A DNA stretch of 64,000 nucleotides from Micrococcaceae bacterium (GTDB lineage: Bacteria > Actinomycetota > Actinomycetes > Actinomycetales > Micrococcaceae), in NCBI GenBank assembly GCA_047605865.1, contig JASGFC010000006.1:145-64144 (forward strand). Reading direction: 5' to 3'. Made by a program: the position numbers and the translations under genes. Shown here piece after piece: positions 19,706-35,826 of the stretch (the first letter of the stretch is position 1; each line of letters opens with the position of its first letter). The notes under the pieces were generated by a model. The model was given only the letters and a program-made list of their open reading frames with translations, was not told the DNA's origin and did not search any database.

Positions 19706-19708
19706 CTG

Positions 19709-19745: not shown

Positions 19746-19765
19746 AGTTTTAAGGTTTGAGGTTA

Positions 19766-20404: not shown

Positions 20405-21373
20405 ATGCCTTCCTATGACTATGCTGTTCAAGCAGAAGGTTTAGTTAAAAAGTTCGGAACCAAAAGAGCTGTAGATGGCGTGAATTTACAAGTAGAACCT
20501 GGTATCGTCTACGGTGTTTTAGGCCCAAATGGTGCTGGTAAAACCACCACTATTAACATGCTCGCTACCTTGTTAAAGCCAGATGCTGGAGAAGCAAAAG
20601 TCTTCGGTTTCGATGTAGTCAAAGACCAGCAAAGTGTTCGTGCCAATATTGGTCTTACCGGTCAATTTGCCTCAGTTGATGAGAACATGACTGCAACTGA
20701 GAACCTTGTCCTTTTTGGCAAGTTACTGGGGATGCCGGCAGCTGCTGCGCGCGCTAAAGCAAATTCTCTCTTAGAAGAGTTTGCTTTGATGGAAGCAGCA
20801 AAGAAACCACTCAAAGATTTTTCTGGTGGTATGCGTCGCCGTTTGGATTTGGCAGCAAGTCTTATTTCACAACCGCCACTCATTTTCTTGGATGAACCAA
20901 CTACTGGACTTGATCCTCGAACTCGTGGACAAATGTGGGATACTATCCGTCGCTTAGTTACTGACGGTTCAACGGTATTATTAACGACCCAGTACCTTGA
21001 TGAGGCAGATCAGTTAGCAAAACGCATTGCTGTCATTGATCGTGGCAAAGTAGTGGCTGAAGATACCCCAGATGGGTTGAAAAATTCAGTAGGTACTTCT
21101 TCCATTCAGCTCAAAGTGGCAGATGATACTGCTCAAGCAGAGCAAATCATGCATAACATTCTTGGCTCAGAACCAATTCTATCGCCAGAAGGAAACACTA
21201 TTACTGCTTCAATGAAAGAAGCTAACCAAGTAACGGATGTCTTGCTTGCAATGCGTGAAGCAGGTTTGCATATCGATGAAGTAAATGTACAAAAGCCAAG
21301 TTTAGATGAGGTTTTCTTGACTCTTACTGGTGAAAAAGCTCATGAAGAAGAGGAGATTGATTATGACAACTAA
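20405..21373 (+). CDS. ABC transporter ATP-binding protein (DrrA/ABC-2 type exporter)
   Basis: Walker A GPNGAGKTT, signature FSGGMRRRL, Walker B IFLDEPTTGLD, DrrA-like C-terminal domain. Confidence 0.9.
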   Translation: MPSYDYAVQAEGLVKKFGTKRAVDGVNLQVEPGIVYGVLGPNGAGKTTTINMLATLLKPDAGEAKVFGFDVVKDQQSVRANIGLTGQFASVDENMTATENLVLFGKLLGMPAAAARAKANSLLEEFALMEAAKKPLKDFSGGMRRRLDLAASLISQPPLIFLDEPTTGLDPRTRGQMWDTIRRLVTDGSTVLLTTQYLDEADQLAKRIAVIDRGKVVAEDTPDGLKNSVGTSSIQLKVADDTAQAEQIMHNILGSEPILSPEGNTITASMKEANQVTDVLLAMREAGLHIDEVNVQKPSLDEVFLTLTGEKAHEEEEIDYDN

Positions 21374-22163
21374 GCTTGTAGAAGTGAAACCGGCAAAGTA
21401 TGTTAGTTTTGCTGATGGTTTCAAACAAACACTTGCTATGGCTCAACGTGCTTTGATTCGTATGTGGCGTACTCCAGAACAATCTCTTGATGTGCTCTTG
21501 ATGCCCATTATTTTCACGGTAATGTTCACCTACATTTTTGGTGGTGCTATTTCTGGAAATGTGAAAAGTTATCTTCCCATTATCATTCCAGGTATTATTG
21601 TGCAGACTGTAATTTCTGCTTCTATCGTGACTGGTGTAAACCTTCGCGAAGACATGGATAAAGGCGTTTTTGACCGCTTTCGCGCTATGCCAATTGCTCG
21701 TATTGCTCCATTAGCAGGGGCGCTGATGGCAGACCTTTTGCGCTATATCGTAGCAACAAGTATTACGCTCATCACTGGCTATTTCATGGGATTTAGGCCA
21801 AAGAGTTTTGGTGGCGTTCTGCTTGCAATTGCACTAGTAACTTTCACCGCATGGTGTGTGAGTTGGATCTTTGCTTTTGCTGGTTTGAAAGCACGAAGTG
21901 CAGCTGCTGTTAATGGTATTTCCATGATGATTATGTTCCCATTGACGTTCTTGTCGAATGCTTTCGTAGATCCAAAGACGATGCCGAGCTGGTTACAGAA
22001 GTTCGTGGAGGCAAATCCACTCTCTCATTTGATTACTGCTGTGCGTGAGCTACTCAATCAAGGTCATATCGGACAGCAGGTAGTTTACACTCTAGTTGGT
22101 GCATTGATTATCGTGGCTATTTTTATGCCACTATGTTTACGTGAGTATATGAAAAAGTCTTAG
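21363..22163 (+). CDS. ABC-2 type transporter permease
   Basis: 6 TM helices of the ABC-2 family. ATG 21363 (MTTKLVEV) overlaps the ATPase stop by 11 nt. Confidence 0.85.
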   Translation: MTTKLVEVKPAKYVSFADGFKQTLAMAQRALIRMWRTPEQSLDVLLMPIIFTVMFTYIFGGAISGNVKSYLPIIIPGIIVQTVISASIVTGVNLREDMDKGVFDRFRAMPIARIAPLAGALMADLLRYIVATSITLITGYFMGFRPKSFGGVLLAIALVTFTAWCVSWIFAFAGLKARSAAAVNGISMMIMFPLTFLSNAFVDPKTMPSWLQKFVEANPLSHLITAVRELLNQGHIGQQVVYTLVGALIIVAIFMPLCLREYMKKS

Positions 22164-22173
22164 GTGACTCACA

Positions 22174-22238
22174 AAGTTACCCCAAAAGTTTGAAGTAGCT
22201 CTCTATAGGGGAGTACATAAACCATTTGGGGTAACTTG
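22174..22238. terminator. Long-loop hairpin in the convergent gap (ABC-2 permease / bcp)
   Basis: 13-bp stem AAGTTACCCCAAA / TTTGGGGTAACTT around a 38-nt loop. Confidence 0.4.
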
Positions 22239-22251
22239 TTAGTTGAAAGGG

Positions 22252-22719
22252 TTAAACGCTGAGTTCTTTCATCATGCGAGCAACGTGTCCAGTAGCTTTC
22301 ACATTGTATTTTGCCATTGCAATCTTTCCTTCTTCATCAATGACAAAAGTTGAACGAATAATCCCATTGAAGATTTTGCCATAGTTTTTCTTCTCACCAT
22401 AGGCACCATATGCTGTGGCAATCTCTTTATTCTCGTCAGAAAGAAGTGTGAAAGGGAGTTCTTTTTTGTTTTCAAAATTTTGAAGTTTTGCAGGAGAATC
22501 AGGTGAAATACCAATGACTTCGTATCCTGAGTTGTTAAAAGCTTCAAGATTATCACGAAAATCACACGCTTCTTTAGTGCAACCAGGCGTCATAGCACGT
22601 GGATAAAAGTAAAGTACTACTTTTTTGCCTGCGTAATCACTAAGGCTAACTTCTTTTCCTCGGGCATTTTGAGCTGTGAAATCAGGGGCTTCATCGCCAA
22701 TTTCTAGTTTAGTTGTCAT
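22252..22719 (-). CDS. bcp: Thioredoxin-dependent peroxiredoxin Bcp
   Basis: FYPRAMTPGCTKEAC peroxidatic-Cys motif. ATG 22719 is preceded by AGGAGG. Confidence 0.92.
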   Translation of the reverse strand: MTTKLEIGDEAPDFTAQNARGKEVSLSDYAGKKVVLYFYPRAMTPGCTKEACDFRDNLEAFNNSGYEVIGISPDSPAKLQNFENKKELPFTLLSDENKEIATAYGAYGEKKNYGKIFNGIIRSTFVIDEEGKIAMAKYNVKATGHVARMMKELSV

Positions 22720-22806
22720 AACTCCTCCTCTTTTAAGGATAGAACAATTCATGATGTTTGGCAGTGCTCTTCATGTTCACCTGCTGGCATTTGTTAAAGT
22801 TTAGAT

Positions 22807-23487
22807 ATGGATGAAGTAGAGAATATTATTGAAGCTGTTAACTTTACAACAGAGAAATCAGCATATAACTACCAAGCTGGAGTTGTGGTGAATGGAATTG
22901 AAACCACAGTAACACATGGTTATTGCAATATTGCCAGTAGCCAAATGGAGGGTGAAACAAGCGTTATAACGCACAATCCTCAAGGTCAAGAAATAAAAGA
23001 TTACACCCATAATTTCCTTGATGGTAAGACTGTATACCTTCAAATTCCAAGACCAGACCCTTCAGGAGAAGGCATGATTAAAGAATGGGTGTCTTTTGAA
23101 TCCCCTGGTATATCTACCTCACAAATTTGGATGTTATTTTGGCTCTACGCCACTGTTGATGCAAAAGAGATTCAACCCAATAAGTACCAAATAACTATTG
23201 ACCCTCAGGTGCTGGGAAAACAAGCACCAGCTGATAAAGCTCAAGAACTTGTCTCTGGCCTTCGTCAAAGTGCACTTGGACAGATTCCTGGCATTTTTCA
23301 TGCAGTAGTCACACTCAGTGATGAAGGTGTTATTGATTCTATGAACTTGGTTATCAATGATTACAAATCACCAGAACACGCACAAACTGGTGCTGTTGCA
23401 GAGGCTGCAGAAGTCATTTACGTTTTGCATTTAACACCAACACCGTTGCAACAGTTGAAGTTTCCTGAAGTTAACAAGGGTAATTAA
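22807..23487 (+). CDS. Hypothetical protein
   Basis: 226-aa ORF with no signal peptide. An in-frame stop 4 codons upstream (TAA 22795-22797) fixes the N-terminus. No motif I recognise. Confidence 0.5.
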   Translation: MDEVENIIEAVNFTTEKSAYNYQAGVVVNGIETTVTHGYCNIASSQMEGETSVITHNPQGQEIKDYTHNFLDGKTVYLQIPRPDPSGEGMIKEWVSFESPGISTSQIWMLFWLYATVDAKEIQPNKYQITIDPQVLGKQAPADKAQELVSGLRQSALGQIPGIFHAVVTLSDEGVIDSMNLVINDYKSPEHAQTGAVAEAAEVIYVLHLTPTPLQQLKFPEVNKGN

Positions 23488-23595
23488 GCTGTTTATGGGT
23501 GTAAGAAGTGGCGAAGGATGCTTATTTTGAAAAGAGTTAATTCTTAGATATAACTTGTATGATGAGGCTTTCAGCAGAAGATAACAAAACAAAAA

Positions 23596-23637
23596 AGCCG
23601 CTATGAACCAATAAAATAAAGGTTATAGCGGCTTTTC
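23596..23637. terminator. Bidirectional terminator-like hairpin (hypothetical gene / tRNA-Lys)
   Basis: AGCCGCTAT ... ATAGCGGCT with an A-run upstream and TTTT downstream. Confidence 0.6.
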
Positions 23638-23659
23638 ACTAACGAAGTAAATCCGTTAG

Positions 23660-23732
23660 TGGGCCCTGCGGGGCTCGAACCCGCGACCCACTGATTAAGA
23701 GTCAGTTGCTCTACCAACTGAGCTAAAGGCCC
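23660..23732 (-). tRNA. tRNA-Lys (anticodon CTT)
   Basis: Reverse complement folds as GGGCCTT ... ACTGA-CTCTTAA-TCAGT ... GCGGG-TTCGAGC-CCCGC ... AGGGCCC-A. Confidence 0.93.
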
Positions 23733-23738
23733 AACATT

Positions 23739-23752
23739 GTTGTTTGTACAAC
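23739..23752 (-). promoter_or_regulatory. tRNA-Lys leader palindrome
   Basis: Minus strand GTTGT-ACAA-ACAAC, 6 nt after the -10 and 6 nt before the tRNA 5' end. Confidence 0.7.
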
Positions 23753-23758
23753 TCGATT

Positions 23759-23787
23759 ATTCTAGCAAAAAAAAGTCTGTACAGCAA
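23759..23787 (-). promoter_or_regulatory. Candidate sigma70-type promoter of tRNA-Lys
   Basis: On the minus strand: -35 TTGCTG, 17-nt spacer containing a T8 run, -10 TAGAAT. Confidence 0.4.
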
Positions 23788-23825
23788 AGCAAAGGTATTG
23801 TTTGCCTTAGCTAACTACTTGGATT

Positions 23826-23863
23826 AAAGTGGGGTGAAGAGCTTAAGCTCTTCACCCCACTTT
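23826..23863. terminator. Perfect 38-nt palindrome downstream of the FtsX permease gene
   Basis: AAAGTGGGGTGAAGAGC-ttaa-GCTCTTCACCCCACTTT. 17-bp stem, with only a short T/A run on either side. Confidence 0.55.
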
Positions 23864-23901
23864 GGTTGGTATTTCTTGGTGTATACAGCACAGCGCTAAG
23901 A

Positions 23902-26469
23902 CTACTGCTCTGCTAAACCTTCAACAGGCGAAAGTTTAGCAGCCTTCTTACTAGGAACAATAGTTGCGATAATTCCTGCTGCTGCAGAGATGAACAATAA
24001 CAAGATTAGTTGTAGCCAAGGCAGAGCAATAGTAACTGACCAGACTTTTCCTAGGATTGCAGTTGCTCCTAGTACTCCTAGTGTTGATCCTGCTGTTATG
24101 GCAACAACAGCAGAGATTGATGCAATGAGTAGAGATTCTATACCAAGCATGGTCCTTAGCTGAGTTTTAGTTAGTCCCAAAGCTCTCAACAGCGAAGATT
24201 CTCTCGTGCGTTCCAGTACAGACAGTGAAGCTGTATTAGCAATACCAATCATGGCAATCACTACAGCAAATGCTAACAACCCAATCAGAACTGCCATCAA
24301 AGAGTTGATCATTGTATTTACTGTGAATCTCATGCTCAAACCTCCAGCAGTGTCATCAGGTGTGAGATTGAATTCTTCGACAGCACTATTTTGAACATCT
24401 TGTACTTGTTTACTGTCTAAACCATCCTTTGTCTTGAAAATAAGGACGTTTTCTGCAGCATTCTGATCAACTTTAGCAGCATCTTCAGGTGTAAGAATTA
24501 ACTTTACTGGATTTTGTCTAGTAATATCTTCTTTTACAACAGGGATAGTGATATTGCCATCTGGACCTTGGATATTTACAGTATCTTTGAGTGTACTTGC
24601 CTGCGGAACAACAAGACTGCCTTCAATAGGCTTCACGCCTGGATCTCGGGTAGCTTTTGCGTAGTCTTCAGGAGCGCTCACAAACACATCTACAGATTCT
24701 CCATCAAGTTGAAGAGGGATTCTGCTACCCCTAACTACTTGATCTACTCCTGAGATTTTACTTGCTTTATCAAGAGCCGCATCATCAAAGCTTTCATTAT
24801 TAGCAGGCTGTTTAATCATCAAATCGATAGAACAAGTTTTATCAATTTCTGCGCTCATGGTAGCTTTAGCTGTAGCAGCACCAGCCATGATAGAACTAAC
24901 CAAGGAAACACCAATCAGTAGTGCGGTTGCAGCTGATGCTGTTCTTCGAGGATTCCTTACAGTATTTAAGGCTGCAAGTTTAGCTGTGACTTTGTTGTCA
25001 GAGATTATTTTGCTTAATGACCCCAATAAAGCAGGAATTACTAAACCTGAAACCAACAACAAACCAAGGAAACTTAAAATTCCTGTAAAGATAGCAAGTG
25101 TTGGTTCATGTTGTATAGCACCAAAGACCAAACCAGCACCACCAAGTATGAAAAGTAGAACTCCAACTTTTACTTTAACTTTACCTTGTTTATTGGTAAT
25201 AGTTGCTTCTTGTAATGGATGTAGGGCTTCAATAGGGGCAAGCTGTGTTGCTTTCTTGGCTGGCATGTACGATGCGGCCATAGCAAGCCCAATTCCTATA
25301 GTGCAGGCTAGCAGTGCTTGATTTGGTTTCAAACTTGCTTCTACCCCAGCTGGCATGATGTTCGTTAGAACGGCATAAGCAACAATCCCTTTAAAAGCAA
25401 GGTAACTGAGGATAGTGCCTCCAAGGGATGCCACAAGTCCAACAATCCCAGCTTCTAGTAAAACAGATCTTTTGAGTTGTTTGGATTGTGCACCAAGACA
25501 GCGCAAGAGTGCTAGTTCTCTAGTTCGTTGAGCAAGCAACACAGTGAAGGTATTAGCAATGACCATAGCTGCAACCGCAATAGCAACTACAATGAATAAC
25601 CAAATGAATCCGATGATTCCGGCAGACCCTGATGAAAGTGCGTTAAGTTGGTCATCAACGTATTCTTTTTGAGTCATGACAGTAACATCTGAACCTACTT
25701 CATGAGTTAACTGTTCCTTTAAGTCTGTTGTGTGGGCTGGATCATCGGCTTTCACGGTGAGTAAGGACAAAGAAACTTGGGAATTTGAAGACTGTGGAGC
25801 CCATTTTTCTATCAAATCATCACTTGCAAATACTGCAGCGGCTGCCCCCATAGTATTTTGTGTTGATTGAGTAATGCCAACAACTTGAGGATGAAAAGTT
25901 TCTGTTCGTGAACCATTTGCCGAATTTGGATTATCTCCACTAGCATCGCCTTGCTGTGATTGATCTGTTGATTGACCAGCTACTATGACATCAAGATCGA
26001 TAACATCATCAATTTTTATTTTTCGTGCGTTAGCTGTTGCTTGATCTAGAGTAATCTCGTTCTGACCTTCAGGAAGACTACCTTCAATAATATTATGAGG
26101 ATTTAAATCTGCTGGTGGAGTTTCATTGATGGTAACAGGGATGTTAGTTCCGGAGAAATTACCATAAATACCACTAAACTTTTCTCCAACATCTTTAACA
26201 TTCGCAGTGTTTTTGACCTTCTCGAGGTTTGATTCTGAAATAAGCGGGATATAGTTATTATCATTTGTTTTTTCTACTGGTTTAACCACTAAATCTGCTT
26301 TTGAAACATCTTGGGCAATAGATTGCGTAACAACGCTATTCATAGTGTTGGTAAACATCATGGTTCCCTGAATAAAAGCAACTGAGATACCCAGTGCAAG
26401 TGTAATAGCAATGAGCCTTCGATAATTTGTTTTCAGTTGAGCTAGAGCTGTCATTAACATTTTAGGCAC
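23902..26469 (-). CDS. ABC transporter permease, fused double FtsX (MacB/BceB-type) domains
   Basis: 855 aa. Two 4-TM FtsX bundles, each preceded by a large extracytoplasmic region. Start overlaps the ATPase stop by 8 nt. Confidence 0.9.
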   Translation of the reverse strand: MPKMLMTALAQLKTNYRRLIAITLALGISVAFIQGTMMFTNTMNSVVTQSIAQDVSKADLVVKPVEKTNDNNYIPLISESNLEKVKNTANVKDVGEKFSGIYGNFSGTNIPVTINETPPADLNPHNIIEGSLPEGQNEITLDQATANARKIKIDDVIDLDVIVAGQSTDQSQQGDASGDNPNSANGSRTETFHPQVVGITQSTQNTMGAAAAVFASDDLIEKWAPQSSNSQVSLSLLTVKADDPAHTTDLKEQLTHEVGSDVTVMTQKEYVDDQLNALSSGSAGIIGFIWLFIVVAIAVAAMVIANTFTVLLAQRTRELALLRCLGAQSKQLKRSVLLEAGIVGLVASLGGTILSYLAFKGIVAYAVLTNIMPAGVEASLKPNQALLACTIGIGLAMAASYMPAKKATQLAPIEALHPLQEATITNKQGKVKVKVGVLLFILGGAGLVFGAIQHEPTLAIFTGILSFLGLLLVSGLVIPALLGSLSKIISDNKVTAKLAALNTVRNPRRTASAATALLIGVSLVSSIMAGAATAKATMSAEIDKTCSIDLMIKQPANNESFDDAALDKASKISGVDQVVRGSRIPLQLDGESVDVFVSAPEDYAKATRDPGVKPIEGSLVVPQASTLKDTVNIQGPDGNITIPVVKEDITRQNPVKLILTPEDAAKVDQNAAENVLIFKTKDGLDSKQVQDVQNSAVEEFNLTPDDTAGGLSMRFTVNTMINSLMAVLIGLLAFAVVIAMIGIANTASLSVLERTRESSLLRALGLTKTQLRTMLGIESLLIASISAVVAITAGSTLGVLGATAILGKVWSVTIALPWLQLILLLFISAAAGIIATIVPSKKAAKLSPVEGLAEQ

Positions 26470-27190
26470 CTAACCTTCCAAGTGCTATCAAGACATCATC
26501 GCTAGAAGGCTGTATGAGTTCCCCAGCTACTTTTCCATCTTCTAAAAGAACTACGCGATCAGCAAAGGACGCAGCGTGAGGATCGTGAGTTACCATGATG
26601 ATTGTTTGCCCCATGTGTTGACTACACCTGCGTAGAAGTTGTAGGACTTGAGTACCTACTTTCGAGTCAAGATTTCCAGTAGGCTCATCACCAAAAATGA
26701 CATCTGGTTTAGCAAGTAAAGCTCTTGCTATTGCTACACGCTGCTGCTGTCCACCTGAAAGCTCATGAGGTTTATGGTCAAGCCTGTCTTCAAGAGCTAA
26801 GATTCTAACAATTTCTTGAAACCATTCGTTTTCAGGGCTTTTACCAGCAAGTTGAAGTGGCAACAAGATGTTTTGTTCTGCTGTGAGTGTGGGAACAAGG
26901 TTAAAAGCTTGAAAAACAAAACCTACACGGTCTCGACGTAACTCGGTTAATTCTGTATCTTGCAAAGCTGTTAGCTCAGTATCGCCAATAAAAACGTGGC
27001 CTTCAGTAATGGAATCTAGCCCAGCTAAAGTATGCATAAGTGTTGATTTGCCTGAACCAGATGGGCCCATGATGGCGGTGAATTGCCCTTGAACAAAATC
27101 AACGTTTACATGGTCTAACGCTGTAACTGAAGCAGTTCCTGAATCATAGTGTTTGCTAACATTAACCGCCTGTGCTGCAATAGTTTGCAT
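26462..27190 (-). CDS. ABC transporter ATP-binding protein (MacB/LolD/BceA type)
   Basis: Walker [10 protein letters not shown], signature LSGGQQQRVAIARAL, Walker B IFGDEPTGNLD. AGGAGG SD. Confidence 0.93.
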   Translation of the reverse strand: MQTIAAQAVNVSKHYDSGTASVTALDHVNVDFVQGQFTAIMGPSGSGKSTLMHTLAGLDSITEGHVFIGDTELTALQDTELTELRRDRVGFVFQAFNLVPTLTAEQNILLPLQLAGKSPENEWFQEIVRILALEDRLDHKPHELSGGQQQRVAIARALLAKPDVIFGDEPTGNLDSKVGTQVLQLLRRCSQHMGQTIIMVTHDPHAASFADRVVLLEDGKVAGELIQPSSDDVLIALGRLGA

Positions 27191-27278
27191 CTTTCCTCCT
27201 TGGAATATCGTAGTGATACTTCAAGGTTAGGAAGAATGAGAGAAAGTTGATATTGGACTTTAGTCTAAAGTTTTTATT

Positions 27279-27980
27279 TTAAGATTCATCCTTTGTGATG
27301 ATTTGTTCATCCGCCTTTAGGGGATCAGCTTCTGTAGACTCAAGGTTACCCTGTTTAGTGTTCTTATGTGCTTTATATACCTCATATCCAATACCAATAA
27401 TAGCTAGTACCACCAACACTTCCATAAATTGAGTTACGTGACGTTTCATATATGGATTATGCGCCAGAACGTAACCTAGGGTTGGCATCCAGAGACACCA
27501 AATTGAAGAACCAAGAGTATTGAAAATTACGAACTTTTTGAAATCCATTTGACTGATGCCAGCAAAGATAGGGCCAAAGGTACGCAATAAAGGGAAGAAG
27601 CGACATAAGAGAACTGAGATACCACCGTATTTGTCAAAAAATTCGTGTGCTTTTTGGATGGAATTTTTATTAAAGATAGGCGAGTCAGGCTTATTAAAGA
27701 AAGCCGGACCAGCTCTGTTACCTACAAAAAACCCAACAATTCCACCAAGCCAGGAAGCAGCAAATGCAACAAGATAAATCTGATACAAAGGGTGGTCTAA
27801 CTTGTTTAGACCAATCATGGCCCCAGCAGTAAAGAGAATGGAATCTCCTGGAAAGACAACACCAATTGGTAACCCAGTTTCAATGAAAACAATAACCAAG
27901 ATTGCCAATAAAGCCCATGGGCCTACTGAGTGTAGTATATGGTCAGCATCAAATATATGATGACTTGAACTGATATCCAT
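27279..27980 (-). CDS. DedA-family membrane protein (paralogue 2)
   Basis: DedA/SNARE-associated pattern: IETGLPIGVVFPGDSILF, GNRAGP, FFPLLRTFGPIFAGIS. AGGAGG SD. 13 nt after the PqqD-like stop. Confidence 0.88.
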   Translation of the reverse strand: MDISSSHHIFDADHILHSVGPWALLAILVIVFIETGLPIGVVFPGDSILFTAGAMIGLNKLDHPLYQIYLVAFAASWLGGIVGFFVGNRAGPAFFNKPDSPIFNKNSIQKAHEFFDKYGGISVLLCRFFPLLRTFGPIFAGISQMDFKKFVIFNTLGSSIWCLWMPTLGYVLAHNPYMKRHVTQFMEVLVVLAIIGIGYEVYKAHKNTKQGNLESTEADPLKADEQIITKDES

Positions 27981-27993
27981 TTAGCCTCCTTTT

Positions 27994-28275
27994 TCATTTT
28001 TTCAGTAGGTACCCCTGTTTATAAAGACCTTCTACAAAGACTATAACTTGTTCAGAGATTTCTGCTTCATCAATATTGAACTTTTGGGATAACGTACGGA
28101 TAGTTTTAGCTAAACTCTCAGACTCTTCAATGAGATTCCAAATATATGCTGCTGTATCCAATAGTACAATAGGGATTTGTTGGTCAAATTTGTAGACAAC
28201 CACTCTTTCAGGAGAGCTTTCTATATAGGCAACATCGTCAGGAATGGCAAAGCGCGAATTTTTAGTAATTGCCAT
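27994..28275 (-). CDS. PqqD-family (RiPP recognition element-like) small protein
   Basis: 93 aa matching the PqqD pattern: beta-strands (VVVYKFDQQIPIVLLD) then TAAYIWNLIEE ... IRTLSQKFNIDEAEISEQVIVFVEGLYKQGYLL. Start lies 11 nt inside the 3' end of DedA-1. Confidence 0.7.
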   Translation of the reverse strand: MAITKNSRFAIPDDVAYIESSPERVVVYKFDQQIPIVLLDTAAYIWNLIEESESLAKTIRTLSQKFNIDEAEISEQVIVFVEGLYKQGYLLKK

Positions 28276-28957
28276 TTTCGTTCGATTCTTTTCTGGTTCT
28301 TCTTATTTCAAGATAAATTGCGGTTGCAGCTATAAGTGCAATACCAACCATAATCCATTCAATATTATGCCTCACCCATGGGAAACGTCCAAGATAATAC
28401 CCCGCGAGCACGATACTCGGACACCATAGTATGGCAGAAATTAAGTTGAAAAATGCAAATTTTTTATAGTTCATATTGCTGATACCAGCAAAGCTGGAAG
28501 CGAAAGTCCTTACAACAGCCACGAAACGAGCAAGAACAAGAGCACTACCTCCACGTTTTTCAAAGAAATTATGACTTTTCTTGATAAATTCTGGTTTAAT
28601 CCATCGTGACTTTGGATTATTAATAAGGCTAGGGCCAGCTTTGTTACCAAGGTAATATCCGAAGTGGCCGCCTAAGTCTGCGGCAAGAGCTAACACTAGG
28701 CAAACAAGCAGAGGGGGGTAGTGTACCTTTCCGGTAGCCATTAAAAGCCCAAGGGTAAATAAGAGCGAATCTCCTGGTAAGATAACGCCAAAAGGAACAG
28801 AAACTTCAAAGAAAATAATGAGGAAGAGCCCAAGTAATAGCCAAGGTCCCATGGCGTGGATTAAATGTCGTGGATCAAATAATTCACTAAGACCACCATG
28901 AGGAGGAGGGGCTGTTGTTGCCAAAGCAAGGCTAAAACTATGGATGAGGCTGTGCAT
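28262..28957 (-). CDS. DedA-family membrane protein (paralogue 1)
   Basis: FEVSVPFGVILPGDSLLF, GNKAGP, FVAVVRTFASSFAGIS. Diverged paralogue of 27279-27980. Confidence 0.88.
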   Translation of the reverse strand: MHSLIHSFSLALATTAPPPHGGLSELFDPRHLIHAMGPWLLLGLFLIIFFEVSVPFGVILPGDSLLFTLGLLMATGKVHYPPLLVCLVLALAADLGGHFGYYLGNKAGPSLINNPKSRWIKPEFIKKSHNFFEKRGGSALVLARFVAVVRTFASSFAGISNMNYKKFAFFNLISAILWCPSIVLAGYYLGRFPWVRHNIEWIMVGIALIAATAIYLEIRRTRKESNENGNY

Positions 28958-28980
28958 AAATTAAGTATATCCTGTCTGTG

Positions 28981-29682
28981 TTATAAATCGCTGGCATCGC
29001 CAGGTTTTGCTACCCCTAGTTCATAGGCTAAGACAGCAGCTTGGACTCTATCTCTAACACCAAGTTTATTTAAAATATGACCGACATGGGTTTTGATGGT
29101 GGCTTCTGATAAAAAGAATTCTTCAGCTAATTCAGTGTTTGATTTACCTTGCGAGATTCCAGTGAAGACTTGCATTTCTCGTGGTGAAAGAATTTCTTCA
29201 ACGTATTGCTTTTGAGCTATACGGTCTTGATTTTTATCTAGTAATGGAGAGACATGTTCAAGCAGGCGTTTAGTGGTTGAAGGTGCAATAACAGCATCTC
29301 CACTATACACAGTGCGTACTGCTTCTAATAAATCTTCTGGTGGAGCATCTTTGAGTAAGAAACCACTTGCCCCTGCTTGAATTGCAGCAAGGGAGTATTC
29401 ATCTAGGTCAAAAGTGGTTAGCATGACAACTTTAAGATGTGGGGATTGATATTTTTCTGGGTGCGAAAGCAACTCTGAGCAACATTCAATGCCGTTCATA
29501 ACAGGCATACGGATATCCATTAACACTACATCTGCTGGAATTTTTTTCAAGAGCTCTAAAGCTTCTGCACCAGTCTCAGCTTCTCCAACTACCTTTAAAT
29601 CTTCTTGAGAGTTAATAAGCATGGCAAAGCCACTACGGAGCAACGCTTGATCGTCAACGAGGACTACTCTAATTTTTTCCAT
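28981..29682 (-). CDS. Response regulator, NarL/LuxR family
   Basis: REC domain (VLVDDQ, DVVLMDIRMP) plus LuxR HTH (REMQVFTGISQGKSNTELAEEFFLSEATIKTHVGHILNKLGV). TAATG overlap with the kinase. Confidence 0.93.
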   Translation of the reverse strand: MEKIRVVLVDDQALLRSGFAMLINSQEDLKVVGEAETGAEALELLKKIPADVVLMDIRMPVMNGIECCSELLSHPEKYQSPHLKVVMLTTFDLDEYSLAAIQAGASGFLLKDAPPEDLLEAVRTVYSGDAVIAPSTTKRLLEHVSPLLDKNQDRIAQKQYVEEILSPREMQVFTGISQGKSNTELAEEFFLSEATIKTHVGHILNKLGVRDRVQAAVLAYELGVAKPGDASDL

Positions 29683-30920
29683 TAAGAAATTCCTATCTTG
29701 CTGTAGGGGATAAAGGATTCAACTTCAAAGCCTCCAGTTGCTTTTGGCCCTGCTTTGACCCAACCATCATAGAGACTGGCACGTTCTTTCATCCCACAAA
29801 TTCCCTGCTGCGAACCAAGTTGTTTGCTAAATTGATTGCCAGATCCAAGGCCATCATCAGAAATTTTCATCCAGATTCCATCCTTATTCCATGCAAGGTG
29901 TGCTGTAGCTTTTGCATCAAGGCCGGCATGTTTCAAAATATTAGTAAAGGCTTCTTGAAAGATACGATAAGCAGTCAATGAAGCTCCAGAAGAAAGCGTT
30001 CCTGACGGGCGTCCAGTTTCTTGAAAATCTATTTCTAAGCCGGAAAGTTTTGTGGTTTCAACAAGTTCAGGTAATTCAGCAAGTGAAGGAGCTGGGGTAG
30101 TTTCTATTTCTTCATCAGAACGTAAAATGCCAATAAGCTTTCGCATCTCTTGTAAAGAATGACGTCCAGTTTCTGAAATAACGCCTAAAGTATGAGCAGC
30201 AGTGTCAGGTTCTTTATCTACGATGTATCGTGCACCATCAGCTTGTGCAATGATGACAGAGAGCGAATGCGCAATGATATCGTGCATTTCACGAGCAATA
30301 CGGGAGCGTTCATCTGCTCCAGCAAGTTTACGTTCTTGCTCTTTTTCAAATTCGAGTCTTGTTGCTTTGTCTTTTAATTCTTGAAGTACGGCTCTTCTAG
30401 CGCTGACCCAATTTCCAGACACCCAAGCAAGCAAAACTATACTTGATTGGAAGATGCCCCAGAAGATTTTTTCTTCAAGAGAGGCTATATAGATATCATC
30501 AGAGATCCCATGGCTTGAAATGGCAGAATATATTGCGCCAAGCAAACCCAAAACTAGAGCTATACGACTGAATTTTTTTGTACAGTAAACAGCCATAGAG
30601 TAAATCATGACAGCTGCTGAAGCATTGGTAGGCAGCACTGGCATATTCACAAAGATATGAATGAAATTTGCCGCTGCAACCACAAGTCCCACAATGGCAG
30701 TGTGTTTTCTGCGCCAAATCATAGGTAACCATTCAAAAGAAATAACAAGAATAGCCACCAGAGCAGGTACATGGCTAGTAGGAGCACTTTCATGTGGATG
30801 TGTGAAACTAAAAATCTCAGGCAACCCAATAGTTAAGAAAAATGGCACAACCCATAAGGCATCAGTTTCAACGGGATGATTACTAGCCCATTGCTTTAAA
30901 GTCGTGTGTGGTTTGCTCAT
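29682..30920 (-). CDS. Sensor histidine kinase, HisKA_3 (LiaS/DesK-like), intramembrane-sensing type
   Basis: About 5 N-terminal TM helices with no sizeable extracytoplasmic loop. H-box REMHDIIAHSLSVI. HATPase_c (FQEAFTNILKHAG, DDGLGSG). Confidence 0.9.
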   Translation of the reverse strand: MSKPHTTLKQWASNHPVETDALWVVPFFLTIGLPEIFSFTHPHESAPTSHVPALVAILVISFEWLPMIWRRKHTAIVGLVVAAANFIHIFVNMPVLPTNASAAVMIYSMAVYCTKKFSRIALVLGLLGAIYSAISSHGISDDIYIASLEEKIFWGIFQSSIVLLAWVSGNWVSARRAVLQELKDKATRLEFEKEQERKLAGADERSRIAREMHDIIAHSLSVIIAQADGARYIVDKEPDTAAHTLGVISETGRHSLQEMRKLIGILRSDEEIETTPAPSLAELPELVETTKLSGLEIDFQETGRPSGTLSSGASLTAYRIFQEAFTNILKHAGLDAKATAHLAWNKDGIWMKISDDGLGSGNQFSKQLGSQQGICGMKERASLYDGWVKAGPKATGGFEVESFIPYSKIGIS

Positions 30921-30933
30921 ATAATCACTGTAC

Positions 30934-30953
30934 TTCTTTTGTGTTTCTTTTGT
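30934..30953. promoter_or_regulatory. Tandem direct repeat in the kinase/FAH divergent promoter region
   Basis: TTCTTTTGT-gt-TTCTTTTGT, 11-nt period, inside the 65-nt divergent gap. Confidence 0.4.
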
Positions 30954-30985
30954 TTCATTCTCAAGTATGATTTACGATTAGATAT

Positions 30986-31759
30986 ATGCGAATAGCCCGT
31001 TTTACCTATGAAGATACTCCCATGTTTGGAGTTGTCCATGGATCAGATGATGATCCACAAATTGCTGTTATTAAGGGTGATCCACTCTACCAAGGTATTG
31101 AAACTACAGGCCAGACAGTCATGCTCAAAGATGTACGTTTACTAGCTCCTGTCATTCCTCGTTCCAAAGTAGTAGGTGTCGGTAAGAACTATCCTGCTCA
31201 TGCTCAAGAGCAAGGTTGTGAAGCACCCAAAACACCACTAATCTTTTTCAAGCCGAATACATCAGTTATTGGCAATGGAGACCCAATCCGTTATCCAAGT
31301 TATTCGAAACAAGTTTCCTACGAAGGTGAACTTGCTATCGTGATTTCTCGTATGTGCAAAGATGTTCCCAAAGAGCGAGTCAAAGATGTAATTTTTGGTT
31401 TTACCTGCGCTAATGATCTCACTGCTCGCGATGTCATGGACTGCGATGTGCAATGGACGCGTGCTAAAGGATTTGATGGTGCTTGCCCTTTAGGACCATG
31501 GATTGAAACAGAACTTGAAGATCCTGATAACGTTGAAATTCACACTTACGTAGACGGCACCTTGGTGCAAGAAGGTAAATCTAAAGAAATGGTGCACAAT
31601 ATTGCTGAAATCGTGAGTTTTGTGACAAGTGTGTGCACTTTGTTGCCAGGTGATGTCATTATTACCGGTTCTCCAGCTGGCATTGGCAAGCTTGAATCAG
31701 GTCAAGAAGTAGAAGTTGAAATTGAAGGGATTGGGGTTCTACGTAACCCTGTGATGTAA
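30986..31759 (+). CDS. Fumarylacetoacetate hydrolase-family protein
   Basis: FAH fold motifs [17 protein letters not shown] and [12 protein letters not shown]. Sits upstream of gltX as in other actinobacteria. Confidence 0.88.
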
Positions 31760-31764
31760 AGAGT

Positions 31765-33252
31765 ATGTCAACTATGAGCAATCAAAAAGTAAGAGTTCGT
31801 TTTTGTCCATCGCCAACAGGCCTACCACACGTAGGTTTGCTTCGTACAGCGTTGTTTAACTGGGCTTATGCCCGTCACACTCAGGGCACGATGATCTTCC
31901 GTATTGAAGATACAGACCAAGCACGTGATTCTCAAGAAAGCTACGAGATGCTTCTTGATGCAATGAAATGGCTCAACATTGACTGGGACGAAGGTGTTGA
32001 AGTTGGTGGACCACATGGCCCTTATCGCCAATCTGAACGTGGTGAAAAGTATCAAGAAGTTATCAAGAAACTGCTAGATAAAGGCTACCTTTACAAGTCT
32101 TATTCAACGCCAGCTGAAGTTGAAGATCGTCACAAGGCTGCTGGTAGAAATCCTAAACTTGGATACGATAATTTTGACCGCAACTTAAGTGATGAGCAAA
32201 TAAAAAGCTTTGAAAATGAAGGGCGTGAAGCTGTTCTTCGTTTCAAAATGCCAGATGAAGATATCACGTTTAATGATCTTGTTCGTGGGGAAGTAACTTT
32301 TAAAGCTGGTTCAGTTCCAGACTATGCTGTTGTTCGCGCAAATGGTCAGCCACTTTACACACTTGTTAACCCGACTGACGATGCACTCATGGATGTCACA
32401 CATGTGCTACGTGGTGAAGACCTGCTCTCATCTACTCCACGTCAGATAGCTTTGCATCGTGCTTTTGTTGATGTAGGAATCTCAGAGCAAGTACCAGAAT
32501 TTGGCCACTTGCCTTATGTCATGGGACAGGGCAATAAAAAGCTCTCGAAGCGCGATCCAGAATCGAACTTGTTTAATTATCGTGATCGTGGTTTCATCCC
32601 TGAAGGATTGTTGAACTACTTATCTTTATTAGGCTGGTCACTTAGCCCTGATGAAGATATTTTCACGATGGATCAAATGGTTAAAGCTTTTGATATCAAG
32701 GATGTTGTAGCAAATCCAGCACGATTTGATGTGAAGAAAGCTGAAGCAATTAATGCTACGCATTTGAGGATGCTGGAACCAGAAGATTATCGTAATCGTC
32801 TTATTCCTTACTTACAAAAAGGTGGAGTTTTAGGAAAAAACGTTTCAGATGAAGATCTTAAAAAACTTGACGCTGCTGTTCCTCTTGTGCAAGAACGCAT
32901 GAACCTATTGGATGAAGCGCCAGATATGCTTGGTTTCTTATTTGCCAACGATGAGGATATTAAAATTCAAGATGATGCTATGAAAGGCATGCCTGAAAAC
33001 TTAGCTGAAGTTCTTGATGCTGGTACCAAAGCACTTGAAAATGTTGATAAGTGGAATACTGATAACATCCAGCAAGCGCTGCGCAGCGCCCTTATCGAAG
33101 ATATGGGATTAAAGCCTCGGCTAGCCTTTGGACCTTTCCGTACTGCGCTAAGTGGGCGCAGAATTTCACCACCATTGTTTGAATCAATGGAAATTCTTGG
33201 TAAAGACAGCACTCTGAACCGTATTCAGCAGTTTAAGGAAGCGAAAGCATAA
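31765..33252 (+). CDS. gltX: Glutamate--tRNA ligase
   Basis: Class I HIGH variant [10 protein letters not shown] and KMSKS variant KLSKR. Full-length GluRS. Confidence 0.95.
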
Positions 33253-33353
33253 AGGCTACTTAGATGTAACGTAGCAAGCATCGGTTTTGTATTCTAAGTA
33301 CTTGTAACTGCATATTTTACTGCTGGTGTGATCGTCAGAGATTTCGCAATGAA

Positions 33354-33382
33354 TTGAAAAAGCTGTAAAAACTCGGTACAGT
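33354..33382 (+). promoter_or_regulatory. Candidate sigma70-type promoter of tRNA-Gln
   Basis: -35 TTGAAA (33354-33359), 17-nt spacer, -10 TACAGT (33377-33382). Confidence 0.45.
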
Positions 33383-33388
33383 TGTTTC

Positions 33389-33404
33389 TGTTGATATTTC
33401 AACA
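33389..33404 (+). promoter_or_regulatory. tRNA-Gln leader palindrome
   Basis: TGTTGA-TATT-TCAACA, 6 nt after the -10 and 1 nt before the tRNA 5' end. Confidence 0.7.
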
Positions 33405-33405
33405 T

Positions 33406-33480
33406 TGGCCTATGGTGTAATTGGCAACACATCGGTTTCTGGTACCGACATTCTAGGTTCGAGTCCTGGTAGGCCAGCCA
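33406..33480 (+). tRNA. tRNA-Gln (anticodon CTG), CCA encoded
   Basis: Acceptor TGGCCTA/TAGGCCA, anticodon stem TCGGT/ACCGA with loop TTCTGGT, T-loop TTCGAGT, 3' GCCA. Confidence 0.92.
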
Positions 33481-33572
33481 AATACCCTCTAGATTTCAGC
33501 TTATACGGCTGGTCTAGGGGGTTACTTTGTATTTATTCAGAGCTCGGTTTAAGCCAAAAAAGTACTTCACGC

Positions 33573-33618
33573 CTTTTGGTTATCTTCGTGAGAAAAAGCT
33601 CACGGAGATAACCAAAAG
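33573..33618. repeat. Palindrome, family copy 2 (42/46 identical to the core of 14058-14103)
   Basis: CTTTTGGTTATCTTCGTGAG-aaaaag-CTCACGGAGATAACCAAAAG. Differences from copy 1 include one compensatory T-A to C-G pair and one A-T to G.T change. Confidence 0.88.
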
Positions 33619-33713
33619 TAGCGTACTAATTGAGATTTAAGGTGTCTGCCATCTCTGCTTGAGTATAGTTGAGATAGTTACTTTTTAAGCGAACGTTTGA
33701 CAAAGGAAGAACC

Positions 33714-34901
33714 ATGCAGTTTGGAATTTTCGGAATTGGTGATATCGCACCAGATCCCACAACAGGAATACCTCGTTCCGAAGCGCAACGTATCAAAGAT
33801 ATCGTCGCAATAGCCAAAGCTGCGGATGAAGCTGGATTAGATGTTTTTGCAACTGGAGAACACCATAATCCGCCTTTTGTTGTATCCTCTCCACCAGCAT
33901 TACTTTCTTACATTGCCGCTGAAACTGAACGTATTATCTTATCAACTTCTGTGACTTTAATTACCACCAATGATCCTGTCAAGATTGCCGAAGATTATGC
34001 TTTTGTACAGCACCTTGCTGAAGGGCGTTTAGATCTGATGATTGGTCGTGGAAACACCGTGCCTGTTTACCCATGGTTTGGTCAAGATATTAGAAACGGT
34101 GTGCCACTTGCTTTGGAAAACTATAACTTACTCCACAAACTGTGGGCAGAAGATATCGTGGACTGGGAAGGTCACTTTCGCACTCCTTTGCAGGGCTTTA
34201 CTTCTGTTCCGAGACCACTTGATGGTGTGCCTCCTTTTGTCTGGCATGGTGCTATTAGAACTCCTGAAGTAGCTGAGCAGGCAGCTTACTACGGAAATGG
34301 TTACTTTGCTAATAATATTTTGGCGCCAAACTTTCACTTTAAACCACTGGTTGAGCTTTATCGAAAACGGTATGAACATTATGGACACGGTAGAGCAGAA
34401 GATGCCATCGTAGGTTTGGGTGGACAAGCGTTCATTGCCAAAAAATCACAAGATGCATACAAACAATTTCGCCCATATTTTGAAAATTATCCTATGTTTA
34501 AAGGATTAACCCTAGAACAATATGCACAAGATACGCCACTTTCTGTTGGATCACCACAAGAAGTCATTGATAAGACTATGACTTTCCGTGAAGGCTTCGG
34601 TGATTATCAACGCCAACTCTGGCTACTTGATATTGGCACGATACCAGTAGAAATTGTCCTAGAACAAATTGAGCTACTTGCTAGTGAAGTAGTGCCAGTA
34701 TTGCGTAAAGAAATGTCAAAACATCGTGCTGCAGGCATTCCAGATGCTCCAACTCATGAATCTTTGGTGCAAGAAAAATATGGTACTGCAGAACCGCGCC
34801 AAGCAAGGCCGCGCCCTAATAGTGGAGATAATACTTCTGGACCACTGCCTTACACGGACAGTGATCCAGATAATCCAGCACATATGCCGAGGTTCATATG
34901 A
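33714..34901 (+). CDS. LLM-class (luciferase-like) flavin-dependent oxidoreductase
   Basis: Luciferase-like TIM-barrel pattern (MQFGIFGIG ... ATGEHHN ... LDLMIGRGN). Proline-rich C-terminal tail. Confidence 0.85.
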   Translation: MQFGIFGIGDIAPDPTTGIPRSEAQRIKDIVAIAKAADEAGLDVFATGEHHNPPFVVSSPPALLSYIAAETERIILSTSVTLITTNDPVKIAEDYAFVQHLAEGRLDLMIGRGNTVPVYPWFGQDIRNGVPLALENYNLLHKLWAEDIVDWEGHFRTPLQGFTSVPRPLDGVPPFVWHGAIRTPEVAEQAAYYGNGYFANNILAPNFHFKPLVELYRKRYEHYGHGRAEDAIVGLGGQAFIAKKSQDAYKQFRPYFENYPMFKGLTLEQYAQDTPLSVGSPQEVIDKTMTFREGFGDYQRQLWLLDIGTIPVEIVLEQIELLASEVVPVLRKEMSKHRAAGIPDAPTHESLVQEKYGTAEPRQARPRPNSGDNTSGPLPYTDSDPDNPAHMPRFI

Positions 34902-35617
34902 GTTTAGAAGAAGCACCATTCCGGCTTGTTGCACTGAGCGCAGGAACATCAGAGCCTTCAACAAGCAGAATGTTAGTGGATAGAGCAGCACAAGCCACTT
35001 CAACTCACTTGAAAGAAAGTGGGTGCAACATTTCAATAGCTGTTATAGAACTAGCGCCTATGGCAGCAGAGATTGCGCAAAGCTTAGTGACAGGCTTTCC
35101 ACAGGAAAAAGTACAGCAGGCTATTGAAAAAGTAGCTCAAGCTGATGCAGTTATCGTGGCAACACCAGTTTATAAGGCAGGAATAAGTGGGCTCTTTAAG
35201 TCTTTTATTGATTTACTTGATAATGATTTGCTAGTGGCAAAACCAGTATTATTAACGGCAACAGCTGGAACTGCACGTCATGCCATGGTTATTGACGAAC
35301 AAATGCGTCCACTCTTTGCTTTCTTGAGAACACTCACTGCACCAACTTCTGTATTTGCAGCCCCTGAAGACTGGGGATCAGCAGAACTTGGTCAAAGAAT
35401 TGACAGAGCTGCCTTCGAAATGGCTACCTTAATTTCCTCACGTGTAGGCAGCACGATTGCTGAAAGTGGGTGGTCAAAATACCAGCATCAATTCGCAGGA
35501 AATGCTACCCGCTCAGAACGTACAAGTGAAGATACTGATTTCACTACAGATTTAATGAAATTGGCTCGTGGACAAAGCTTAAGTAGCCAAAGTTTCAAGA
35601 ATAGTAAAGACAAGTAG
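34898..35617 (+). CDS. NADPH-dependent FMN reductase (LLM-partnered type)
   Basis: Flavodoxin-like FMN_red pattern (LVALSAGTSEPSTSR ... ATPVYKAGISGLFKSF). ATGA overlap with the LLM gene. Confidence 0.82.
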   Translation: MSLEEAPFRLVALSAGTSEPSTSRMLVDRAAQATSTHLKESGCNISIAVIELAPMAAEIAQSLVTGFPQEKVQQAIEKVAQADAVIVATPVYKAGISGLFKSFIDLLDNDLLVAKPVLLTATAGTARHAMVIDEQMRPLFAFLRTLTAPTSVFAAPEDWGSAELGQRIDRAAFEMATLISSRVGSTIAESGWSKYQHQFAGNATRSERTSEDTDFTTDLMKLARGQSLSSQSFKNSKDK

Positions 35618-35633
35618 TACTGGCTGAAAACTT

Positions 35634-35662
35634 TTGTTAGATAGGGAAGTTTAGTGTACTAT
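35634..35662 (+). promoter_or_regulatory. Candidate sigma70-type promoter of tRNA-Glu
   Basis: -35 TTGTTA (35634-35639), 17-nt spacer, -10 TACTAT (35657-35662). Confidence 0.45.
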
Positions 35663-35668
35663 TGAAAC

Positions 35669-35695
35669 GTTGTTATTACAACAGCGAAGCTGTTG
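35669..35695 (+). promoter_or_regulatory. tRNA-Glu leader palindromes (two overlapping, mutually exclusive)
   Basis: GTTGT-TATT-ACAAC (35669-35682) shares its 3' arm with CAACAGC-gaa-GCTGTTG (35679-35695). Confidence 0.65.
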
Positions 35696-35704
35696 ATAAC
35701 TTAC

Positions 35705-35777
35705 GGCCCCTTCGTCTAGCGGCCTAGGACGTCGCCCTCTCACGGCGGTAACACGGGTTCAAATCCCGTAGGGGTCA
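35705..35777 (+). tRNA. tRNA-Glu (anticodon CTC)
   Basis: Acceptor GGCCCCT/AGGGGTC, D-arm GTCT/GGAC, anticodon stem TCGCC/GGCGG with loop CTCTCAC, T-arm ACGGG-TTCAAAT-CCCGT. Confidence 0.92.
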
Positions 35778-35783
35778 CAACTA

Positions 35784-35826
35784 AGCCTCAACCCCCTTGT
35801 TTTTTAGGGTGTTGAGGTTATTATTT
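35784..35826 (+). terminator. Intrinsic terminator after tRNA-Glu
   Basis: CCTCAACCCCC ... GGGTGTTGAGG (one mismatch) followed by TTATTATTTT. Confidence 0.65.

Follow-up and report, generated by a model that had tools for sequence, protein, structure and literature searches.

A small protein of the PqqD family, normally a marker of ribosomally synthesised and post-translationally modified peptide (RiPP) pathways, lies outside any RiPP gene cluster in a 64,000-nt stretch of Micrococcaceae DNA, and its gene is tightly coupled instead to that of a DedA-family membrane protein. The stretch, referred to here at its full length as the window, comes from a metagenome-assembled genome (MAG) labelled Micrococcaceae bacterium (GCA_047605865.1, contig JASGFC010000006.1), with a GC content of about 41% throughout the region concerned. 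The protein, of 93 amino acids (aa), is predicted to adopt the fold of a RiPP recognition element (RRE), and the gene 3' of its own encodes the membrane protein that we call DedA-2. The link between the two genes is conserved, with translational coupling, in three genomes, despite saturation of synonymous sites. The reading that we consider most likely, with a probability of about 0.4, is that the RRE has been repurposed as an accessory of DedA-2, the two being encoded as a two-gene unit behind a HisKA_3/NarL two-component system next to gltX in a small low-GC Micrococcaceae clade.

The open reading frame (ORF) in question is:

27994..28275, minus strand: discrete 93-aa PqqD-family, RRE-fold protein (evidence: PF05402, AlphaFold2, Foldseek and dN/dS)

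RRE and PqqD domains are used as class-independent beacons in RiPP genome mining. If an RRE does work outside any RiPP cluster, it would be both a documented exception to that use and an example of domain repurposing. The regulation and assembly of DedA proteins are poorly understood, and matter for undecaprenyl-phosphate recycling and for resistance to polymyxins and lipopeptides. To our knowledge, no DedA protein has a known soluble partner. If the proposed role is correct, DedA proteins would gain their first described protein partner and RREs their first function outside biosynthesis, and a dedicated soluble partner would provide a handle on how DedA proteins are regulated or assembled. 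RREs outside RiPP clusters have been treated in the RRE literature as possible but unvalidated (PMC7470986).

Family and fold of the 93-aa protein

The initial annotation, made from the sequence without database searches, had recognised a PqqD pattern in the 93-aa product, and both profile and structure comparisons bear this out. The Pfam PqqD model (PF05402) matches residues 36-90 with 41.2 bits (E = 2.1e-10), against a gathering cutoff of 23.4. A model computed with AlphaFold2 (AF2) from ten homologues has a mean predicted local distance difference test (pLDDT) score of 93.8 and a predicted template-modelling score (pTM) of 0.82. It displays a beta3-alpha3 arrangement, with strands at residues 15-21, 24-29 and 35-39 followed by helices at residues 40-51, 55-66 and 70-86; three strands followed by three helices is the definition of an RRE in recent literature (PMC12710340). 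In a Foldseek comparison with the PDB, the top match was leader-peptide-bound TbiB1 (template-modelling (TM) score 0.81/0.85; root-mean-square deviation (rmsd) 1.4 Å), and next came TfuB1, PqqD and the RRE domains of TruD/LynD, TigE, MibB and SuiB, those of cyclodehydratases among them. Using sequence information only, the profile of the homologue alignment matched TbiB1 at 1.9e-11, and TfuB1 and PqqD were matched as well. Together, these results confirm a genuine folded protein of the PqqD family with a winged-helix RRE architecture.

The 93-aa protein nevertheless falls below the cutoff of every specific curated subfamily model in NCBIfam, scoring 31.9 against 80 for lasso_PqqD_Bac, 23.9 against 46 for the PqqD of pyrroloquinoline quinone (PQQ) biosynthesis, and lower for the rest. 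It resembles the lasso-peptide B1 proteins TbiB1 (PDB 5V1U/5V1V) and TfuB1 (PDB 6JX3), which are likewise stand-alone, small and acidic, in size and in the beta3-alpha3 fold (TM 0.81-0.85, rmsd 1.4-2.0 Å), and among solved structures the lasso B1 proteins give the best profile match. It differs from them in being only 18-20% identical, in its scores against the two lasso models (NF033536, 31.9 versus 80; NF033530, 12.4 versus 70), and in its genomic setting, where the gene is coupled to that of a DedA membrane protein and has neither a B2 protease, a C cyclase, a precursor nor a D exporter gene nearby. The PqqD of the PQQ pathway, founder of PF05402, is similar in that the family model is matched above threshold and the fold is like that of PDB 5SXY and 3G2B; unlike that protein, the 93-aa protein stays well below TIGR03859 (23.9, cutoff 46), and pqqA, pqqB, pqqC and pqqE are absent from the window.

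The protein is acidic, with an isoelectric point (pI) of 4.7, and has no cysteine, signal peptide or transmembrane segment; across the PqqD orthologues described below, pI ranges from 4.3 to 4.7 and net charge from -4.5 to -11. With these properties it is predicted to be cytosolic and is unlikely to bind DNA. A DNA-binding winged-helix regulator was considered as an alternative identity and is rejected on account of the strong acidity.

Absence of RiPP genes from the window

The initial annotation had stated that no RiPP enzyme or precursor lies within 7 kb of the ORF. That statement holds, and can be extended to the whole window by reading every ORF from a minimum length upwards (90 aa in 19000-38700, 110 aa elsewhere in the 64 kb) and by running Pfam on the 17 ORFs in 18951-37448. 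Among the ORFs of the window we found no gene for a radical-SAM enzyme, YcaO protein, lasso cyclase or protease (B2/C), LanB/C, nucleotidyltransferase (PF14907 included) or ATP-grasp protein, and none for a transglutaminase-like or Asn-synthetase-like protein or for PqqA, PqqB, PqqC or PqqE. The genes present are housekeeping, transport and regulatory ones, including pyrG, xerD, parA, der, aroA, gltX, murA and ddl, with recG, ftsY, ffh, rpsP, trmD, rplS and lepB as further housekeeping genes; a luciferase-like monooxygenase accompanied by an FMN reductase is also encoded, and two ORFs (226 aa and 136 aa) are matched by no Pfam model. The gaps within and bounding the operon that contains the 93-aa ORF measure 13, 23, 65 and 88 nt, and are therefore too short for a precursor gene. 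No precursor-like or conserved small ORF was seen in the gaps of the window, nor in the gap that precedes the PqqD gene in the two orthologous loci introduced below, and no maturase or precursor was found in the 12-15 kb fetched around those orthologues. The 93-aa protein thus lies outside any RiPP cluster within the 64-kb window.

Conservation of the coupling to DedA-2

In the window, the 93-aa ORF occupies the fourth position in a compact operon of seven genes on the minus strand, whose order is histidine kinase (HK), response regulator (RR), DedA-1, 93-aa ORF, DedA-2, ABC ATPase and FtsX permease. Its ATG (28275) lies 11 nt 5' of the DedA-1 stop codon (28262-28264), which gives a 14-nt overlap without a good Shine-Dalgarno sequence, and its TGA (27994-27996) is followed by AAAAGGAGGCTAA (13 nt) and then by the DedA-2 ATG at 27980. 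Both junctions, read again in the sequence, are as first annotated.

The gene is rare. An exhaustive phmmer search of 1.84 billion representative (cluster) proteins returned 13 proteins at E <= 1e-3, of which only one is a close relative (P0002; 91 aa, 43% identity). It is encoded in another low-GC Micrococcaceae MAG (GCA_047608145.1, JASGDC010000035.1), at a locus that we call L001. A third Micrococcaceae MAG (locus L008; assembly with contig JASGEI010000018.1), in which the HK and RR genes are intact, was found by scanning GTDB species representatives with a DedA-2 alignment. Both loci have the order gltX - fumarylacetoacetate (FAA) hydrolase - HK - RR - PqqD - DedA - tRNA-Lys, and the gltX/FAA hydrolase flank matches that of the window. 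The DedA gene 3' of PqqD is in each case the orthologue of DedA-2 (55-56% identity, versus 37% to DedA-1), and at both junctions the sequence is TAAgATG, so that the spacer is 1 nt and DedA has no Shine-Dalgarno sequence.

DedA-1 is not found between RR and PqqD in L001 and L008, where a 129-nt AT-rich gap occurs instead, and the ABC ATPase and 855-aa permease genes are also absent from these loci. In the window, the latter two (23902-27190) lie between DedA-2 and a tRNA-Lys gene (23659-23732); this tRNA-Lys(CTT) is directly 3' of the DedA-2 orthologue in L008 (L008 6806-6881), and nearby but inverted in L001. The transporter pair was therefore either inserted in the lineage of the window or lost in the other. 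Because DedA-1 and the ABC pair are both missing from the orthologous loci, the conserved unit is (HK-RR)-PqqD-DedA-2, with DedA-1 and the ABC pair as likely additions in the window lineage. Also rejected as members of the unit, because they are absent from the window, are the ORFs of 100 aa and 136 aa that lie 3' of DedA in L001 and L008.

The position between two DedA paralogues that was first described is thus correct for the window genome and does not extend to L001 and L008, where only the downstream DedA occurs. Likewise, when recurrence in other genomes is considered, PqqD-DedA-2 recurs in two other Micrococcaceae MAGs and the flanking pair does not. The pairing is specific as far as these data reach. 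None of the 29 other DedA loci from the same scan contains a PqqD-like ORF or this two-component system. The next-closest relatives of DedA-2 (at most 40% identity; Cellulomonas and allies) are found in the context SpoU methylase | DedA - haloacid dehalogenase (HAD) hydrolase, and the two Cellulomonas-type loci contain neither a PqqD ORF nor a two-component system; the window differs from this usual Micrococcales arrangement. A metagenome scan with the alignment of the three PqqD orthologues retrieved only three distant PqqD genes, none of them adjoining DedA. An exact-sequence look-up of the 93-aa ORF in the contig collection gave no match, and a scan of genome contigs with single-sequence patterns found no relatives.

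Selection on the PqqD gene and lesions in L001

Between L001 and L008, the ratio of non-synonymous to synonymous substitution rates (dN/dS) is 0.21 for PqqD, higher than for DedA-2 (0.07) or for FAA hydrolase and gltX (0.05-0.06). The value for PqqD shows purifying selection, and together with the confident fold it largely excludes a non-functional relic. Between the window and the L001/L008 lineage synonymous sites are saturated, yet the PqqD ORF is intact, and the PqqD proteins are 40-43% identical, compared with 47% for the kinase, 55% for DedA-2, 72% for RR and 80-82% for gltX; in this comparison PqqD evolves faster than DedA-2, RR and gltX, and at a rate similar to that of the kinase. Trp46, which is invariant in the family, has been kept, as has the DTAAxIW motif with which helix 1 begins, and the best-conserved parts are strand beta1 (DVAY[IL]ES) and helix 3. 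That coupling to DedA-2 has survived divergence of this depth argues for a role tied to DedA and not to a RiPP pathway.

The two-component genes of L001 are damaged (L001 2689-4617): the kinase gene is disrupted both by one inserted nucleotide and by an in-frame stop, the regulator gene by the loss of one nucleotide from a run of A. The PqqD, DedA, gltX and FAA hydrolase genes of the same locus are intact. These lesions represent either a real pseudogenisation of the two-component system or a local assembly error. If they are real, the PqqD-DedA pair would appear to be maintained independently of the two-component system.

Other genomic contexts of PqqD and DedA relatives

The nearest non-orthologous relatives of the 93-aa protein (P0004, P0008, P0009, P0010, P0012 and P0014) are 28-39% identical and come from high-GC actinobacteria. 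In every case with enough context, their genes overlap or adjoin a gene for an NTP_transf_5 protein (PF14907), a predicted nucleotidyltransferase. We located such pairs at L002 10001-12840, L005 5963-8282, L007 7078-8291, L046 660-1855 and L047 5578-6770, often near genes for Wzz/BY-kinase, GDSL lipase, acyltransferase-3 and glycosyltransferase proteins, and once near an HprK/ScmC-like gene. No RiPP maturase was found within 7-10 kb of these pairs, which apparently constitute a second non-RiPP context for PqqD-family proteins. They resemble the locus in the window in that a discrete PqqD is translationally coupled to a partner that does not look like a RiPP enzyme; they differ in the identity of that partner, which is DedA in the window, where a PF14907 gene is absent. 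It seems that members of this PqqD subfamily are generally small coupled partners of another protein, and that the Micrococcaceae clade may have exchanged its partner for DedA.

Two further phmmer matches are long proteins, P0003 (1460 aa) and P0007 (1089 aa), which matched the 93-aa query only at the beta-sheet and helix 1 (residues 15-57 and 25-59). The matches to P0003 fall into 10 separate stretches, as if this protein were built of repeats, either RRE-like or unrelated beta-rich units.

As regards the membrane proteins, DedA-1 and DedA-2 score 75.7 and 69.8 bits with the VTT_dom model (PF09335, cutoff 33.9), and like the DedA transporters YqjA and YghB of E. coli, UptA of B. subtilis and S. 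aureus, and PetA, they have the VTT domain with conserved acidic and basic residues. Unlike these named transporters, they lie below the UptA equivalog cutoffs of NCBIfam (DedA-2, 70 versus 300 and 55.8 versus 250; DedA-1, 49.8 and 41.9) and below that of PRK10847. In the DedA family alignment E34, D46 and R133 are invariant and R127 nearly so (at least 90%). We take Glu34, Asp46, Arg127 and Arg133 of DedA-2 to correspond to the essential residues E39, D51, R130 and R136 of E. coli YqjA. The AF2 model of DedA-2 (pLDDT 84.8) has a confident DedA core with low-confidence residues at 1-10 and 215-233. DedA-2 looks functional from its conserved signature residues, and its tails look disordered in the model.

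A possible accessory role for the RRE protein

Two papers link DedA proteins to the flipping or recycling of undecaprenyl phosphate and to resistance to lipopeptides and polymyxin (PMC11474028, PMC12893004). We propose that the 93-aa RRE protein may have taken on a new role in the cytoplasm, as an accessory subunit of DedA-2. The RRE cleft, between beta3 and alpha3, would hold a short, extended stretch of peptide through beta-strand addition, and the most economical candidate for this ligand would be one of the disordered cytoplasmic tails of DedA-2. Such binding would then govern how stable or active a DedA-type transporter of lipid or undecaprenyl phosphate is, or how it is assembled. In the window genome, the unit is set in an operon that resembles an envelope-stress or antimicrobial-detoxification module, with its kinase, regulator, DedA-1 and MacB/FtsX-type ABC transporter. 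The C-terminal tail of DedA-2 is probably cytoplasmic, given a Lys-rich segment after the last helix and the positive-inside rule. In the three DedA-2 orthologues this tail carries a short hydrophobic pair in charged surroundings (EQIITKD, EAVVLDD and AAIIDKK), which, as a speculative lead, may be the type of segment that an RRE could bind by strand addition. A wider claim, that the RRE has left peptide biosynthesis altogether, now belongs solely to a DedA transporter of lipid (possibly undecaprenyl phosphate) as its cytoplasmic subunit or regulator, and recognises a short linear segment of that transporter or of a lipid-linked peptide, is in our estimation doubtful.

The initial annotation had proposed a non-canonical role for the RRE in more general terms, with the DedA proteins or the kinase as docking partners and the permease ectodomains among the candidates to be checked. 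The non-canonical role itself is partly supported, by the RRE fold, the lack of RiPP genes in the 64 kb and the conserved coupling to DedA-2, and the choice of partners narrows to DedA-2, as DedA-1 and the ABC permease do not occur in the orthologous loci. For the same reason, the ectodomains of the permease are not favoured as a binding site. Docking to the kinase is weakened by L001, where PqqD and DedA are intact despite the frameshifts and the stop codon in HK and RR.

Several points weigh against the accessory role, and the results need to be interpreted with these in mind. We know of no accessory protein described for any member of the DedA family, and a literature search for PqqD together with DedA found no paper. 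The tail motif is speculative and is drawn from only three sequences. The nearest non-orthologous relatives pair with a different partner, NTP_transf_5. The RiPP-free region comprises one 64-kb contig and 12-15 kb around the orthologues, which leaves room for a RiPP cluster elsewhere in these genomes. Finally, the three MAGs represent effectively two independent lineages, and adjacency may partly reflect shared ancestry. The domain family is known; what is new is its genomic context, which is very narrow, the pairing having been found only in three uncultured and closely related MAGs. The interaction between the 93-aa protein and DedA-2 is inferred from gene order alone, which limits the weight of the finding.

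Alternative explanations

The alternative that survives best, although we regard it as unlikely, is that the 93-aa protein acts in trans as the RRE of a RiPP pathway encoded elsewhere in the genome (lasso-like, radical-SAM or other), its adjacency to DedA being accidental. Lasso-peptide B1 chaperones are the nearest of the solved structures and also give the best match in NCBIfam, and the region inspected is a single 64-kb contig of a MAG. However, in known systems discrete RREs lie inside their own clusters (PMC12710340), and here neither the 64 kb nor the 12-15 kb around the orthologues contains a precursor or maturase. The lasso_PqqD_Bac score of 31.9 is also far from the cutoff of 80, and the coupling to DedA-2, by 1 nt or by 13 nt, is conserved across lineages with saturated dS.

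We also consider it rather unlikely that the protein is a cytoplasmic binder of a peptide handled together with DedA, whether an entering antimicrobial peptide or the stem peptide of a lipid-linked cell-wall precursor, for which it would serve as sink, sensor or delivery factor. RREs do bind extended peptides with modest sequence requirements (PMC12710340), three papers connect DedA proteins with undecaprenyl-phosphate recycling, with the action of lipopeptide antibiotics and with the uptake of at least one antibiotic (PMC11474028, PMC12893004, PMC12119084), and the operon in the window includes a MacB/FtsX-type transporter. Against this, the ABC transporter is outside the conserved unit, and DedA-2 does not reach the UptA equivalog thresholds. 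An incoming antimicrobial peptide as ligand, which had been put forward in the initial annotation, finds no support in a protein that is acidic and cytosolic, with neither signal peptide nor transmembrane segment.

A third possibility, which appears distinctly unlikely, is that the protein serves as an accessory to the two-component system and modulates its signalling by binding to the kinase, to the regulator or to a peptide signal, with DedA-2 no more than a member of the regulon. Small accessory proteins are common for envelope-stress kinases, and the order HK - RR - PqqD - DedA-2 is kept in all three genomes, with DedA-1 lying between RR and PqqD in the window. In L001, however, PqqD is intact and under purifying selection although HK and RR are broken (two frameshifts and one stop), and in both L001 and L008 PqqD is separated from RR by the 129-nt AT-rich gap, compared with 1 nt from DedA.

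Least probable of all, and in our view very unlikely, is that the ORF is what remains of a RiPP-type or PqqD-NTP_transf_5 cassette that has decayed, and is kept mainly as a leader cistron that drives translation of DedA-2 while its protein has little function: DedA-2 of L001 and L008 does start 1 nt after the PqqD stop without a Shine-Dalgarno sequence, and PqqD does evolve faster (40-43% identity, versus 55% for DedA-2 and 80-82% for gltX), but the dN/dS of 0.21 and the very confident canonical fold indicate selection on the protein, the ORF has been retained in the window even though DedA-2 there has its own strong AAGGAGG, and Trp46 and the DTAA..IW motif have been kept.

Organisation of the operon in the window

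The remaining features of the operon and its 3' flank are as follows.

29682..30920, minus strand: sensor histidine kinase with a DUF7134 membrane domain, HisKA_3 and HATPase_c, the first gene of the operon (Pfam)
28981..29682, minus strand: NarL/LuxR-type response regulator (Response_reg and GerE; L008 orthologue 72% identical)
28262..28957, minus strand: DedA-1, the second DedA paralogue (VTT_dom, 75.7 bits; 38% identical to DedA-2)
27981..27993, minus strand: 13-nt spacer from the PqqD stop to the DedA-2 start, with the Shine-Dalgarno sequence AAGGAGG at 27985-27991 (sequence reading)
27279..27980, minus strand: DedA-2, a DedA-family VTT-domain membrane protein (VTT_dom, 69.8 bits)
27191..27278, minus strand: 88-nt spacer between DedA-2 and the ABC ATPase, forming a hairpin in RNA (folding; minimum free energy (MFE) -20 kcal/mol)
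26462..27190, minus strand: MacB/LolD-type ABC ATPase, specific to the window lineage (ABC_tran; NCBIfam matches sub-threshold)
23902..26469, minus strand: 855-aa duplicated FtsX/MacB-type permease, specific to the window lineage (two FtsX domains and MacB_PCD)
23822..23867, strand not assigned: palindromic hairpin with a 20-bp stem, just 3' of the permease stop (terminator scan)
23659..23732, minus strand: tRNA-Lys(CTT), used as a synteny marker (ARAGORN; Rfam tRNA, 73 bits)

For the histidine kinase, NCBIfam gave sub-threshold matches only (MctS, NarX, MadS and LiaS), and the 855-aa permease had a sub-threshold match to the ADOP family of duplicated permeases. The MFE of the hairpin in the 88-nt spacer compares with -10.4 +/- 2.6 kcal/mol for shuffled sequences (z = -3.7). 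In this hairpin, UUCUUCCU pairs with the Shine-Dalgarno sequence of the ABC ATPase gene, AGGAGGAA. The hairpin could be a control point for translation or mRNA stability at the boundary between the DedA and transporter portions of the operon.

The 414-nt gap past the permease contains both the tRNA-Lys gene and the hairpin with the 20-bp stem, which probably marks the end of the seven-gene operon. Within the operon, the terminator scan found only short-stem (5-8 bp) consensus matches, and the scanned region contains 9 sites compared with 6.6 +/- 2.7 in shuffled sequences, about the rate expected by chance.

Other observations in the window

A homologue of ribosomal protein S16 (57206-58021, plus strand) is 271 aa in length and has a long, very acidic C-terminal extension rich in Asp, Ser, Thr and Glu. 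Two near-identical copies of a segment of about 45 aa can be read in the translation of this extension; at the DNA level, Tandem Repeats Finder (TRF) reported a short 24-nt repeat only.

Two paralogous secreted proteins are encoded on the plus strand at 49541-51028 and 51125-51889. They have in common a domain in the C-terminal half (...GDDYPFK/YKTS.C.NA..G...ESPLGT.ICQCTDFVLWRLNQAAGG..., read from the translations), and the longer of the two has a low-complexity N-terminal region rich in Thr, Ser and Gln and a resuscitation-promoting-factor-like motif at its end.

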